Source: an uncultured virus (IMG/VR IMGVR_UViG_3300001605_000027) (lineage: Duplodnaviria > Heunggongvirae > Uroviricota > Caudoviricetes). From it: a stretch of 20,000 nucleotides of DNA. Shown one piece after another: positions 5,077 through 10,687 of this stretch. The notes beneath the pieces were generated by a model. That model did no database searches, had not been told where the DNA came from, and saw nothing but the letters and a program-made list of their open reading frames with translations. Location: the IMG/VR virus record IMGVR_UViG_3300001605_000027; one strand, 5' to 3'. The translations under genes and the position numbers were made by a program. Positions within the stretch are counted from its first letter, which is position 1, and every line of letters begins with the position of its first letter.

Positions 5077-6763
5077 TTGGCGACGGTGGCAAAGCTGATT
5101 GGCGGGGCTGGAACGGGCAAGACGACCGAGCTAATGCGGATCATGGGCGAGGTTATCGGGCATGGGGTCGATCCCTTTGAGATCGGCTACGTGTCCTTCA
5201 CCAAGGCGGCGATCATGGAAGCCGCCGGGCGGGTCGAGCAAGAGTTCGGGGTAGCCGCCGAGCATCTGACAAAGCAGGGGTGGTTCCGTACTTTGCATTC
5301 GGTCTGCTACCAGTCCTTGGGGTCGATGGCCAAGGGCTTGCTGACCGACAGGAAGGCCGACCGGGAATGGCTCGAAGGCGTCCTGCAAGAGCATGTCGGC
5401 GAAGTCGTCAAGGCCATCGACGACGATCAAGGCTCTGGCGTCCGAGCGATGGCGATGGATGCCCAGTCGCCCGCATCGAACGCCCTGCGGATATGGGCGA
5501 TGGCCCGGTCCCGGCTATGCACGATCGACGAAGTGGTCGCCGAGCTATTGATCTGCGGCGAGACGCCGCCGCCGGTGGAGTATTGCCGCAAGATCGCCCA
5601 TCAATACGAGCGGTCCAAGTATCTCGACGATCGGGTCGACTTCGCCGACTTGGCCGGTCGGTTTGCGGGCTGGCGGTGGAATCCCGATGGCGACCACGAC
5701 TGGTTTGTCGATCCAATGGGCGAGACGCCGAATGTCCGCGTCTGGTTCTTCGACGAGCATCAAGACGTTAGCCGACTTCTGAACTCGGTGGCCCGGCGTC
5801 TGACCAATAGTCCGTCGTGCCAGTGGGCTTATTTCTCCGGCGATCCATTCCAATCGATCTTCGGGTTCGGCGGTGCGGACATGAATTGCTTTCTCGACAT
5901 CGAAGCCGACCGCGAACGCACGATGGAGCGTTCCTTCCGGTGTCCCGAAAACGTCCTGCGGCTGGGCGAGCGGGCTTTGTCGCGGTGTTCCAATTACTTT
6001 GACCGTGGCATCGCCCCGAATGAACCCGGCGGACTGGTCGATTTTTCGTACCGTTACCGCGATCTGCTGACGACGCTCGATCTGTCGGCGACCACGATCT
6101 TGACGGCCCGTACCAATCAGTTGGCCAGCCGGTTTATTCCCGCGTTGGATGAATCGGCCATTCCATGGATGCGGACAGAATCCGAACACGGCTATCTCTC
6201 TAAAGGCGCAAAAACAATTTGTTTTTTTCTGCGGGGATTAGAGATGGACATGAAAGAGCAAATTCCGCGCAAATTTCCGATCGGTTCGTGGCTCTCTCTT
6301 ATAGAGAAGCTGCCAGTTGGTAAAGGCGAATCGGCGTTGTTCAGCCGTGGGACCAAGACGGCGGCCAAGGCCGGAACGTTGGGCGGCGACCGATCCATGG
6401 TCACTTACGAGGATTTGGCATCGCTGGGGGCCACGGACTATCTGCTACGGACGATCGCCACCGGCCAATGGTCAAACGTCGTCGAAGGCGGCGAGCGATT
6501 CAGGCGGGCAGTGGCGGCCCATGGGATGGAAGTGGCCATGGAACCGAAAGTCCGCGTCGGCACCATCCATTCGGTCAAAGGGTCGGAGGCCGATACGGTG
6601 GTCATGCTCGACTCGCTGACGCGTCGCTGCGATATGAGCCGCCGCGTACCCCGCCGGTCGCGACGAAGAACAACGCGTGGCCTACGTCGGGATCACGCGG
6701 GCCAAGAAGCGGCTGCATATTCTTCGCCAACAGTCCGATCGCTGGCGGATGGATATCGAATGA
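5077..6763 (+). CDS. UvrD/PcrA/Rep-like SF1A helicase (one +1 frameshift at ~6638-6661)
   Basis: Motifs GGAGTGKTT, SFTKAA, RTLHS, FDEHQD, GDPFQSIFGF, SFR and TIHSVKGSEAD are in frame. Motif VI (DEEQRVAYVGITRAKKRLHIL) is in the +1 frame and ends at TGA 6761-6763. Confidence 0.88.
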
Positions 6764-7260
6764 CTAAGACGCTCGACGATCTGCTGGCCGCCGTCCCGAA
6801 GCTACGGACCTACCGGCAATTGAACACGGCCCAATTGCGATACCTACTCGATCGGCTCGACGGCCAATGCACGTGGTGCGGACACGACGTCGGGCGTCGG
6901 CAGAACTGGTGCAGCGACGAATGCGTCGAATTGTTCCAGCTTCGATGCAGTCCGCCGCATCAAGCCAAGTTCGTCGTCGCCCGCGATGGCTACATCTGTC
7001 GATTGTGTGGTCGCGACACCATCGCCGCTGAGCAAGAGTTCCACCGCCAGTGGCATCAAGCGACTGACCGCCGAACAGCGGCCAAGCGGCAACTGATGGC
7101 ATCGCTAGGCCATGGCCGGGCAGGGTGGCGGGAGGTCGATCATATCTTGCCCGTAGGCGACGGTGGCGGGCTGACTGGGCCGGAGAATCTGCGGTTACTT
7201 TGCGGGGCTTGCCATAGCGAAGTATCGAAGGGGCAAGCACTTAGGAACCAATCCGAATAA
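6760..7260 (+). CDS. HNH endonuclease with Zn-binding Cys pairs
   Basis: ATG at 6760 overlaps the helicase TGA (ATGA). Motifs: CTWCG...WCSDEC, ARDGYICRLCG and EVDHILPVGDGGG..GPENLRLLCGACH. Confidence 0.9.
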   Translation: MTKTLDDLLAAVPKLRTYRQLNTAQLRYLLDRLDGQCTWCGHDVGRRQNWCSDECVELFQLRCSPPHQAKFVVARDGYICRLCGRDTIAAEQEFHRQWHQATDRRTAAKRQLMASLGHGRAGWREVDHILPVGDGGGLTGPENLRLLCGACHSEVSKGQALRNQSE

Positions 7261-7276: not shown

Positions 7277-7305
7277 TTGACAGTTTATCGGTTAGCCGAT
7301 AACAT
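7277..7305 (+). promoter_or_regulatory. sigma70-type promoter with overlapping palindromic operator
   Basis: TTGACA (7277-7282), a 17-bp spacer, then TAACAT (7300-7305). The IR TTATCGG-N4-CCGATAA (7285-7302) covers the spacer and -10. Confidence 0.8.
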
Positions 7306-7353: not shown

Positions 7354-7548
7354 ATGTTCAACGGATACAAAGTCAGCCATCCAAAACTTGATTGCACGTA
7401 TTCGGTGGTTTTGTCAAAGGAACAATATCACGAAGTGTGCAACCATCTTGGTGAAATGGGCGAAGGCGGAAAGTGCGAACGAATGTCAGACTTGTCGATT
7501 GACACTAAGTTTGATTCGCTGGTTAAAGAATTGACGCGACACTATTAA
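7354..7548 (+). CDS. small hypothetical early protein
   Basis: First ORF after the promoter (alternative ATG at 7333). Its TAA stop overlaps hammerhead 1 stem I. Confidence 0.65.
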   Translation: MFNGYKVSHPKLDCTYSVVLSKEQYHEVCNHLGEMGEGGKCERMSDLSIDTKFDSLVKELTRHY

Positions 7549-7600
7549 CCCACTGACGAGCCGGTGCGATTCCGGCGAAACGCCCACGGGCGTATGGGTT
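7547..7600 (+). ncRNA. type I hammerhead ribozyme (HHR-1), predicted cleavage after A7594 (GUA)
   Basis: Stem I AACCCA (7547-52)/UGGGUU (7595-7600); core CUGACGA (7553-59); stem II GCCGG-UGCGAUU-CCGGC (7560-76); GAAA (7577-80); stem III CGCC/GGCG with A15.1-U16.1; cleavage triplet GUA (7592-94). Confidence 0.93.
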
Positions 7601-7632
7601 CGACAACAATACTTCAACAGCAAGGCAAGACG

Positions 7633-7974
7633 ATGGCAACGACAGTAAAAACAACCCCAGCCCAACAAGCCGCCGAGTTCATGGGCCGATGCAATTCGCT
7701 CGGTTGGAAAGTCGAACGAATCGACGATAGCGTAGTCACAATTACTAAGCGATTCGCAGCGGGCGACCGCGACGGCCTTGTCGAATGCGACATGGAATAC
7801 TACGACGTTTTGGGCATGTGCCCATTGAAAGGCGGTTCAGTTTGGGGAACTGACTGCGGCGGGCTTGGTGCGATATCGGCACTTAATAGCGGCGTGTTCC
7901 GAATGAACAAATCGGGGTCTGGTGGTAAGCGTTTTGCCGCCGAAGTTCGCAAGATCATGCTATCAACCCACTGA
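7633..7974 (+). CDS. 113-aa hypothetical protein flanked by two hammerhead ribozymes
   Basis: AAGG upstream of ATG 7633. The protein reads MATTVKTTPAQQAAEF...GGSVWGTDCGGLG...MLSTH. Its TGA stop is the UGA of the CUGACGA core of HHR-2. Confidence 0.85.
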   Translation: MATTVKTTPAQQAAEFMGRCNSLGWKVERIDDSVVTITKRFAAGDRDGLVECDMEYYDVLGMCPLKGGSVWGTDCGGLGAISALNSGVFRMNKSGSGGKRFAAEVRKIMLSTH

Positions 7975-8020
7975 CGAGATCCCGGCGGGGATCGAAACGC
8001 CAGCGATGGCGTATGGGATG
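7964..8020 (+). ncRNA. type I hammerhead ribozyme (HHR-2), predicted cleavage after A8013 (GUA)
   Basis: Stem I CAACCCA (7964-70)/UGGGAUG (8014-20, one A-A mismatch); core CUGACGA (7971-77); stem II GAUCCC-GGCG-GGGAUC (7978-93); GAAA (7994-97); stem III CGCCA-GCGA-UGGCG (7998-8011); GUA (8011-13). Confidence 0.93.
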
Positions 8021-8047
8021 CAACGACAACCACCAAGGGCCGATCAA

Positions 8048-8215: not shown

Positions 8216-8234
8216 CAATTCAAGGCAACCACCA

Positions 8235-8438
8235 ATGGCAACCGCAACCACCGTGCAAAACGCACTAGGCGAAACGTTCGACTTGTCGACCATGACTGGA
8301 TGGGAAGTGAAGAAACTGTGTCGTGAATTGACCGCTGAGTCGGTCATGTATGGCCACATTGAAGACGTAGCCAAGCGGGATTGGCTACGCGATCAGCGTG
8401 ATATCGTCGACGCTGAGATTCGTCGGAAGTGCTACTAA
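8235..8438 (+). CDS. small hypothetical protein (67 aa)
   Basis: Its CAAGGCAA leader matches that of the 7633 gene. Confidence 0.7.
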   Translation: MATATTVQNALGETFDLSTMTGWEVKKLCRELTAESVMYGHIEDVAKRDWLRDQRDIVDAEIRRKCY

Positions 8439-8447
8439 GGATCAACC

Positions 8448-8779
8448 ATGACAAATGACTGGCTACCACCACTCGCCGCCGACGCCGAGCAAGGCCGCGA
8501 GATAGTGNAACNTACCCCGACCGGATCANNCGTCCATGCGTCGGTATGTTCAGATCAATAGCACGCGGCGACCGTGCGACGTTGTATCGTGCTGGCACTG
8601 GTCAGTACGGTGGCCGTGGATGGGTGCCGATTCATAAGGTGCCGGTTCATCTGCGATCGTCGCTTTACGGAGTCCCCAACAACGATTGGCAGGATGCGTA
8701 TTTCAAGACGCCGCAAGCAGCGGCAAAGATGCTTCACTCGATCGGTAAAGGCCCGGCCAATGTCCGCCAATCAGTGTAA
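8448..8779 (+). CDS. hypothetical protein (frame interrupted at ambiguous bases)
   Basis: TAAGGA RBS and ATG at 8448. Removing the Ns at 8508 and 8512 gives a continuous frame joining MFRSIARG...VRQSV. Confidence 0.6.
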
Positions 8780-9382: not shown

Positions 9383-9420
9383 GTTTATCCGTTGACAGAT
9401 AAACCGACGGCGTATAAGAT
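9383..9420 (+). promoter_or_regulatory. sigma70-type promoter with palindromic operator
   Basis: TTGACA (9392-97), a 17-bp spacer, then TAAGAT (9415-20). The IR GTTTATC-N8-GATAAAC (9383-9404) straddles the -35. Confidence 0.8.
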
Positions 9421-9513: not shown

Positions 9514-10687
9514 ATGGTTCAGACGATCAAACAACTATCGACCGACCAGGAATCCGCCGTCGCGTCGATTCGTGCGTTTGTCCGATCGGGCAGCCAGCAG
9601 TTGACGATGGGCGGCCTCGCTGGAACCGGCAAGACGTCGATCATGTCGTACCTGTGGCCAGAACTGATGGCCGCCGGTGCCTATGTGATTACGCCGACGG
9701 GCAAGGCTGCGAGTGTCCTACGCAAGAAAGGCATCGACCGCGTATCGACGATTCATGCGTTGTTGTATTTGTTTCGCGGCGTCGTCGACGACGTCCGCAC
9801 CGGTGAAAAGCCGATATTCGACAATCGCCACGATGGCGATTGGGGCTGCGATATCACGCCGAAGATGCTTGTGTGCGACGAGGCATCAATGGTCAACAGC
9901 CAATGTTATGACGACGTCATGGCCCGCGACGTCCCCGTTATATGGGTCGGCGACCACGGCCAGCTTGCCCCGGTCGGCGGCGATCCCGGCATCATGCGAG
10001 ATCCCGACATCCGACTCGAAAAGATTCACCGTCAAGCCGAAGGCAACCCCATCTTAGACCTAGCGTTGGCCGTCCGCCATGGATTGTCGACCGAGCGATT
10101 CCGCGACTTCGCCGACGGCGACCGCTTGAAGATCGGCGGCATCCTCGATGATCGGCGGCTTGTGAAGTACGCAAGGGACAACGAGATAGATCAAGTGATC
10201 GTCGGCGTCAACGGCAAGAACCGTCGACGACTACGGGTCAAGGCATAAGATCAACCGGCTATTCCGCGAGTCCTACGGATTCAAAGATGATTTGTGTGTC
10301 GGCGACCGGCTGATTTGTACGTTCAACAATCGACGGCGTGGGATCAGCAACGGTGAGATATTCCGCGTCGATGCGATCGAGTTTTCGACGGCGACTTATC
10401 ACAACTGCTATCTATCGAGTGAAACCGCCGACGGATGGGAGCCGCTGGGCAAGTCGATCAACGTACAGCGGATATCGCTGGGCAACCCGGATTACCGGTC
10501 GGCGGATCGCGTCCCTGACTGCGGCGAGTTCGATTATGGCCATGGGATCACCGCCCACAAAAGCCAAGGGTCGCAATGGCGTCGCTGCTTAGTGGTGCAT
10601 CGCAACGTCCATGCGTTCGATATGGATCGCTGGGCTTATACGGGTTTTACGAGGCCGTCGGAACATTTGAGTGTGGTGATACGATGA
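9514..10687 (+). CDS. Dda/RecD-like SF1B helicase (one +1 frameshift at ~10216-10245)
   Basis: First frame has GLAGTGKT, TPTGKAASVL, STIHALLY, CDEASMV, VGDHGQLAPV and LEKIHRQ. The +1 frame continues TVDDYGSRHKINRLFR...GDRLICTFN...YGHGITAHKSQGSQW...WAYTGFTR. Confidence 0.88.

Follow-up and report, generated by a model that had tools for sequence, protein, structure and literature searches.

Two type I hammerhead ribozymes flank a single small gene in an uncultured phage: a gene-boundary family for which a circular product is possible but not favored

The window, a 20,000-nucleotide stretch of DNA from an uncultured virus (IMG/VR record IMGVR_UViG_3300001605_000027), is part of a double-stranded DNA phage-like genome that encodes SNF2, UvrD, and Dda-like helicases, a primase-polymerase, and a VRR-NUC protein (Pfam and PHROG matches). 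Comparison of this phage by blastn with 50,697 phage records gave no match. A sigma-70-like promoter match probably marks, as judged from its sequence, the start of a small-gene operon; three promoter-like matches are seen in 2.5 kb, compared to 1.5 expected. The string of small genes that follows contains two complete type I hammerhead ribozymes, HHR-1 and HHR-2, at two consecutive gene boundaries (Table 1). Both lie on the same strand, one at each end of a single open reading frame (ORF), with their cleavage sites after A7594 and A8013. The TAA stop codon of the upstream ORF (7546 to 7548) overlaps stem I of HHR-1, and neither of the flanking small ORFs, of 64 and 55 amino acids, has a Pfam or PHROG match.

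Table 1. Features of the small-gene operon around the two hammerhead ribozymes
Feature	Coordinates	Strand	Remarks
Sigma-70-like promoter match	7277..7305	+	TTGACA-17-TAACAT; 10 of 12 positions; consensus match only
Upstream small ORF	7354..7548	+	64 aa from ATG 7354; 71 aa from 7333
HHR-1, type I hammerhead	7547..7600	+	Descriptor; covariance model 63.5 bits
Unit freed by double cleavage	7595..8013	+	419 nt; cleavage itself putative
A-rich leader with AAGG	7611..7632	+	Predicted helix with 7930-7946, -17.8 kcal/mol
113-aa ORF, GGSVWGTDCGG motif	7633..7974	+	43 homologues; UGA stop 7972-7974
HHR-2, type I hammerhead with pseudoknot	7965..8022	+	Descriptor; covariance model 54.1 bits
Downstream small ORF, 55 aa	8048..8215	+	Begins 34 nt past second cut

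Several further observations concern the surroundings of the operon. The word CGACAAC after the cut is common to both leaders (7602 to 7607 and the region of 8024 to 8029), as is CAAGG before the start codon. A/C-rich leaders also precede the next small genes (8220 to 8235 and 8436 to 8450), which have no hammerhead. A second promoter match, TTGACA-17-TAAGAT, is located at 9392 to 9420 ahead of the Dda-like helicase, with a -35 box identical to that of the first. This Dda/RecD-like helicase is split over two ORFs (9514 to 10248 with an N-terminal AAA_30 domain and 10292 to 10687 with a C-terminal UvrD_C_2 domain), possibly through an assembly frameshift. At 5077 to 7260, a UvrD-like helicase and an HNH domain share a single 727-amino-acid frame in which residues ∼520 to 560 look off-frame; these may be two genes fused by an assembly error or a frameshift. 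The window contains five N bases, three of them near 8509 to 8531. At 52 loci of the downstream helicase (best segment at most 55% identity), no ribozyme was found at E values up to 0.1.

Both hammerheads are real and canonical type I ribozymes, with the core CUGANGA, GAAA, UH, three stems, an open stem I, and GUA cleavage triplets. HHR-1 consists of a 6-bp stem I (7547-7552/7595-7600), the core (7553-7559), a stem II (7560-7576) capped by a 7-nt UGCGAUU loop, GAAA (7577-7580), and stem III (7581-7592). HHR-2 has a 4-bp stem I (7967-7970/8014-8017), the core (7971-7977), a stem II (7978-7993) with a GGCG loop, GAAA (7994-7997), and stem III (7998-8011); its loop bases 7985-7987 pair with 8019-8021, past the linker A8018. 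The descriptor finds only these two copies in the window and nothing in 100 shuffled versions of it. In a covariance model derived from 70 relatives, with the window's own copies excluded, the two score as listed in Table 1, and the next best match in the window reaches 9.7 bits. Rfam 15 detected neither hammerhead in the window at E values up to 1, and no hammerhead was found on the minus strand. Self-cleavage at 7594 and 8013 presumably takes place in vivo. The UGA stop codon of the 113-amino-acid ORF is also the UGA of the CUGA core of HHR-2, and ribosomes terminating there would come to rest on the catalytic core. A stop codon within the ribozyme core is found in 8 of 52 listed units (the window and loci L173, L182, L185, L189, L214, L234, and L257), some of which come from related phages.

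Pattern scans yielded 42 viral loci, at least 125 more (with long flanks for 80), and 16 loci in genome contigs; the patterns demanded CCA/UGG beside the core, which biases the seeds to this stem I but not the neighboring copies. A strict pattern taken from the window's two copies gave no viral matches. The descriptor recovers at least 264 type I hammerheads, at least 200 of them distinct, in 176 of the 335 loci examined, with up to nine type I copies per locus; one was dropped because of a short flank, leaving 199 for analysis, the window's two included. In the alignment, 96.5% of stem cells are paired and 12 of 15 pairs show two-sided changes, compared to 24 to 40% in slid controls, with the rows picked by a descriptor that requires pairing and thus leans toward the structure. 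An ATG lies within 60 nt after the cut in 183 of the 199 listed copies, at a median distance of 30 nt. A stop triplet in any frame directly precedes stem I, or does so by at most 2 nt, in 87 of the 118 members of the CCCA/UGGG group. Among the 52 listed units, no ORF beginning at the first ATG crosses the next core, and 25 end inside it or at most 40 nt before it. The layout of the window, with hammerheads flanking ORFs, also occurs in 28 listed arrays, with cargo genes that vary between units. On these sequence features, the family is a gene-boundary module composed of a stop codon, a type I hammerhead, an A-rich leader with the ribosome-binding site (RBS), and a start codon ∼30 nt past the cut.

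Rfam 15 at the gathering score did not detect the family at four of its loci, and this type I family (stop codon, CCCA, core, UGGG) would merit a model of its own. Dense arrays occur in uncultured phages (L181, L153, L234, L182, and L156). Within 5 kb, L181 carries nine type I and four type II hammerheads, almost one for every gene; seven type I copies occur in L153 and six in L234, their stem I changing from copy to copy. In L236, a 1,217-nt unit with a 287-amino-acid cargo lies between two hammerheads. This cargo may resemble an ArdC-type anti-restriction protein, in line with ardA beside hammerheads in Perreault 2011 (PMC3088659).

The family shows two subtypes of tertiary contact. Of the listed relatives, 43 carry an RG(C/G)R tetraloop at the tip of stem II; their stem I measures 4 bp in 38 cases, with an A right after it in 37. 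By a fixed-register count, the three bases past this A pair with loop II at all three positions in 30 of 43 and at two or more in 38 of 43, several of these rows deriving from one phage. Two-sided changes in loop II/tail include GCG/CGC (15), GGA/UCC (9), GCG/UGC (4), and GCA/UGC (2); by position, the pairs are G-C in 39 of 43, then C-G in 23 and G-C in 14, and then G-C in 15, A-U in 15, and G-U in 4. The fixed-register count was used because a generic pseudoknot score is noisy (own pairing in 117 of 147 versus 51% in shuffled sequences for non-GNRA loops, and no excess for GNRA loops). Across the family (L152 to L334), covariation of the loop II/tail pseudoknots extends to a large variety of loop sequences, 4 to 8 nt in length. 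The pseudoknot of HHR-2 is GCG/UGC, and by this comparison UGGG-A-UGC is its native and complete partner. The preliminary description had counted a mismatch in the partner UGGGAUG; the letters are correct, but since the loop II/tail pairs covary in relatives, the mismatched base is the pseudoknot linker and no defect. HHR-1 belongs to the second subtype, with a 7-nt YGNRAHY loop and 37 listed relatives, in which stem I comprises 5 bp in 28 and 6 bp in 1. From this subtype assignment, its GNRA-like loop probably docks on its longer stem I.

Double cleavage would release a unit with the leader, the complete ORF, and its stop codon, and from known hammerhead chemistry, its ends are expected to be a 5'-OH and a 2',3'-cyclic phosphate. 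The unit starts with UGGGUUCGA (7595-7603), and positions 7965-7970 read AACCCA. The coordinates, letters, and length of the unit, its ORF, and the pairing of UGGGUU with AACCCA are as described previously, and a comparison of energies bears out that stem I of the circle is stronger than the linear one of HHR-2. The duplex across the joined ends amounts to -8.0 kcal/mol, compared to -7.2 for HHR-1's own stem I, -5.5 to -5.8 for that of HHR-2, and -5.2 when the strands are combined the other way round. Folding of the excised unit predicts closed ends, with pair probabilities of 0.72 to 1.0. Closure reaches a probability of ∼1.0 here and exceeds 0.9 in 3 of 36 listed relatives (units up to 720 nt); with the interior of the unit shuffled, it still exceeds 0.9 in 21 of 40 cases. 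The ends may thus pair noncovalently, and according to the folding model end closure is better here than in most relatives, this unit being among the better candidates for a circle test. After the first cut, end pairing has a probability of 0.48 versus 0.15 for HHR-2's own stem I in a folding model blind to pseudoknots, so that the second cut might be partly inhibited; this cross pairing exceeds the ribozyme's own pairing in 2 of 36 listed relatives. The fold of the unit is otherwise ordinary (z = -0.8 against 100 shuffles, 61% paired, branched). The predicted helix between the leader and the ORF end aids end closure and would cover the ribosome-binding region; 16 of 360 tiles of the window pair equally well. 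As a family trait this helix was rejected, the 51 family units showing no trend (mean rank, 0.51).

The ribozyme rebuilt by joining these ends would differ from both parents. It combines the loop of HHR-2 with the tail of HHR-1, leaving one of three pseudoknot pairs in register, or two in a shifted register, in competition with the extended stem. Among 29 listed units, the own pseudoknot is better than the hybrid one in 11 and worse in 1. The earlier statement that the ends rebuild an intact hammerhead therefore holds for stem I only: because the 3-bp pseudoknot of HHR-2 is lost in the hybrid, the circle would rebuild a minimal hammerhead. In a type II example of Perreault 2011 (PMC3088659), breaking the pseudoknot or extending stem I by 2 pairs strongly slows cleavage. 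Minimal hammerheads ligate poorly, at about 0.01 versus 1 per minute (PMC12118343). Native type I retrozymes show self-ligation of 1 to 3% versus 30 to 80% with RtcB in vitro (PMC7229834). With the tertiary contact lost and self-ligation that low even in native type I retrozymes, reverse ligation is unlikely here and a protein ligase would be needed.

The end match itself can be compared with what the family offers. The 5' strands of HHR-1 and HHR-2 are near-identical repeats. The 5' end of the unit forms at least six contiguous pairs (G-U allowed) with 96 of 197 listed 5' strands from unrelated family members, and 27 of the 197 reach -8.0 kcal/mol. Within the CCCA/UGGG group, 89 of 118 listed 5' strands pair as long with it, and for 22 of 24 in HHR-2's own loop class, it is a better partner than the strand's own tail. 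The 6-bp match would thus follow mainly from repeat homology and a family consensus derived from the stop codon, and since these account for it, the step from a better end match to a designed circle does not hold.

A survey of 51 adjacent ribozyme pairs in other phages or prophage-like loci (spacing up to 1.5 kb; 27 loci, partly of related phages) points in the same direction. Among these listed pairs, the circle stem is longer than the reverse stem in 8, shorter in 10, and equal in 33 (energies, Wilcoxon P = 0.83); compared to the downstream ribozyme's own stem, it is longer in 3 and shorter in 18. In 13 of the 51, it has fewer than 3 bp and is unable to close. Unit lengths modulo 3 are distributed 14/18/19, with no bias to multiples of three. 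Cross-pairing of at least 4 bp is found for 35 of 51 adjacent pairs, 42 of 68 nonadjacent pairs in the same array, and 2,252 of 6,890 pairs between arrays; by these sequence counts, copies within one genome resemble each other, and neighbors do not do so specially. The symmetric circle/reverse result is compatible with selection for identical stems, but in arrays such as L153, L182, and L234, stem I is altered within each ribozyme, so that cross-pairing is broken. The present unit has the longest circle stem among the 52 listed pairs, 6 bp compared to at most 5.

The cargo belongs to a phage and bacterial protein family and is modeled as an alpha/beta fold (pLDDT, 93.7), without a Pfam or PHROG match. 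No clear fold match emerged: Foldseek gave no match to the model at E values up to 0.001, Atlas hits are all under 0.9, and the best VIA match has a Z score of 5.2, an rmsd of 4.1, and 86 aligned positions. The family ribozyme is present in 0 of 151 loci of ORF homologues (best score, 15.3 bits); these include 80 of 140 loci from one search, 135 with enough flank on both sides, and 5 at 60% identity or more. Since none of these loci carries the ribozyme, the gene and the ribozymes are not a conserved unit. In 16 of the homologue loci, Rfam found nothing but tRNAs. Loose descriptor matches in L012/L087, L075, and L138 were rejected as chance, having weak stems and disappearing under a stricter descriptor and the model. 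In L007 and L009, the place that HHR-2 takes in the window, just past the stop codon of the homologue, is filled by a conserved G+C-rich hairpin. As to the conservation of end complementarity among homologous cassettes, which the circle proposal had called for, the 13 pairs that cannot close, the lack of asymmetry, and the 151 loci without the cassette indicate nonconservation in part.

The closest known systems are the clustered hammerheads of Perreault 2011 (PMC3088659), which flank single prophage genes or short gene blocks and cleave in vitro and in E. coli, with pseudoknots in about 40%. The window shows the same features, namely, same-strand hammerheads flanking a single phage gene at the boundaries of an operon of small variable genes, with a nonconstant cargo and a tertiary contact formed by a pseudoknot of loop II with the stem I region. 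Those authors also proposed processing into single-gene mRNAs and considered circles; spliced or circular products were sought and not detected. The cargo gene differs here, and the window shows the stop-CCCA/UGGG stem I and two loop II subtypes; the family may be contained in its Figure 2B or supplement S4.

The animal non-LTR retrozymes of Cervera and de la Peña 2020 (PMC7229834) also carry tandem type I hammerheads, 170 to 400 nt apart, and their monomer ends re-form the ribozyme and could be closed by RtcB. They are, however, multicopy tandem repeats that are noncoding and highly self-paired and have reverse transcriptase (RT) partners, with identical ribozymes whose tertiary contact is kept in the circle. 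The window contains one coding unit of ordinary, not highly self-paired fold, with ribozymes of two different subtypes and a circle lacking a native ribozyme. Zetavirus-like tandem ribozyme pairs in totiviruses (Lopez-Galiano et al. 2026, PMC13725137), 186 to 399 nt apart, could likewise yield a circle with an ORF. Those belong to RNA viruses and are rod-like, with lengths in multiples of three and no stops; the unit of 419 nt is no such multiple and is branched rather than rod-like, with a stop codon and no minus-strand hammerhead.

The reading that fits these data best, and which is considered likely, is that the ribozymes punctuate an early phage operon and yield linear single-gene mRNAs. 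An operon of small genes near a promoter would be transcribed as a polycistronic message, and each hammerhead would cut the nascent transcript in cis by means of its own tertiary contact, the loop II pseudoknot with bases just past stem I in HHR-2 and presumably GNRA-like loop docking in HHR-1. The product would be a linear mRNA for one gene, bearing a 5'-OH and, at its hairpin-capped 3' end, a cyclic phosphate, and the stability and translation of each piece would be uncoupled from those of the neighboring genes. The rebuilt hammerhead without the tertiary contact would favor neither fast ligation nor a designed circle. Complete cores, covarying stems, the placement of stop codon and ATG at gene boundaries, and the advantage of own over hybrid pseudoknots (11 to 1) argue for punctuation. 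The exceptional circle stem and end closure of this unit and the preference for end pairing after the first cut are harder to reconcile with it, and the benefit of cutting is untested across the whole class, the role of hammerheads in bacteria being called largely elusive in PMC6765202. An unlikely but not negligible addition is that some of the units are closed by an RtcB-type ligase of the host, the hybrid ribozyme then recutting slowly so that circles persist unselected. The near-certain predicted closure, the efficiency of RtcB on type I retrozyme monomers (PMC7229834), RtcB in 10 of 14 control genomes, and the 4 bp or more available across the ends in 35 of 51 listed pairs speak for such a by-product. 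Against it, Perreault 2011 (PMC3088659) saw no circles from such units (data not shown there), and RtcB was found neither in the 27 records with arrays, most of them incomplete, nor among the 34 window ORFs scanned, out of 157.

The remaining readings are all improbable. The least so is a one-way ratchet in which the GNRA-loop hammerhead upstream and the pseudoknot hammerhead downstream cut fast, and the strongly paired ends (6 to 8 bp plus the helix), closed by host RtcB, would be slow to reopen and leave a long-lived protein-coding circle. Marginally less credible is a switch in which the freed 5' end and ribosomes stopping in the HHR-2 core compete with HHR-2's own stem I, the second cut becoming dependent on the first and on ORF translation, which would tune the downstream genes. 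Cross pairing at 0.48 and the stop codon within the core, a feature shared with 7 of the 51 other units, agree with it, but the folding model ignores the pseudoknot and the cotranscriptional order, the preference recurs in only 2 of 36 relatives, and a stop codon within CUGA may reflect economy alone. A selected circular mRNA, with ends evolved by the phage for an exonuclease-resistant, translated circle, ranks slightly lower still. The RBS, complete ORF, and stop codon all lie within the unit, the circle stem outdoes HHR-2's own, the UGGGUU tail of HHR-1 is unusual for its subtype (6 bp in 1 of 37), and the leader helix helps closure. This is opposed by the match expected from the consensus, the symmetry of circle and reverse stems, the pairs that cannot close, the adjacent pairs being no more compatible than nonadjacent ones, the lack of a multiple-of-three bias (14 of 51), the ordinary fold, the absence of the ribozymes from homologue loci, and the hiding of the RBS by the closing helix. 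A retrozyme-like mobile cassette, reverse transcribed from circular RNA and inserted at hammerhead sites, is largely refuted. Its length and tandem type I layout resemble those of animal non-LTR retrozymes, and the ORF is found ribozyme-free in many contexts; insertion, however, predicts a coherent circle ribozyme and hybrid genomic ones, and the opposite is seen, as loop II fits its own tail. Retro-insertion through a circle was rejected on this ground; the unit is also single copy in the window, the cargo varies between units, and RT is absent from 26 of 26 viral records (most incomplete). A circular mRNA is thus possible, neither shown nor favored.

The layout has been known since 2011, and the two hammerheads of the window are further members of it, from a type I family that escaped Rfam 15 here and whose tertiary contact comes in two covarying subtypes. 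A literature search, with most subscription papers outside its reach, found no report of a DNA phage with a circular mRNA made by ribozymes. The window adds one more example to the ribozyme-punctuated phage operons, and units of this kind lend themselves to use as test constructs. Should a translated circle be demonstrated, a DNA phage would provide a circular mRNA of natural origin, a parallel in nature to engineered ribozyme/RtcB circularization.
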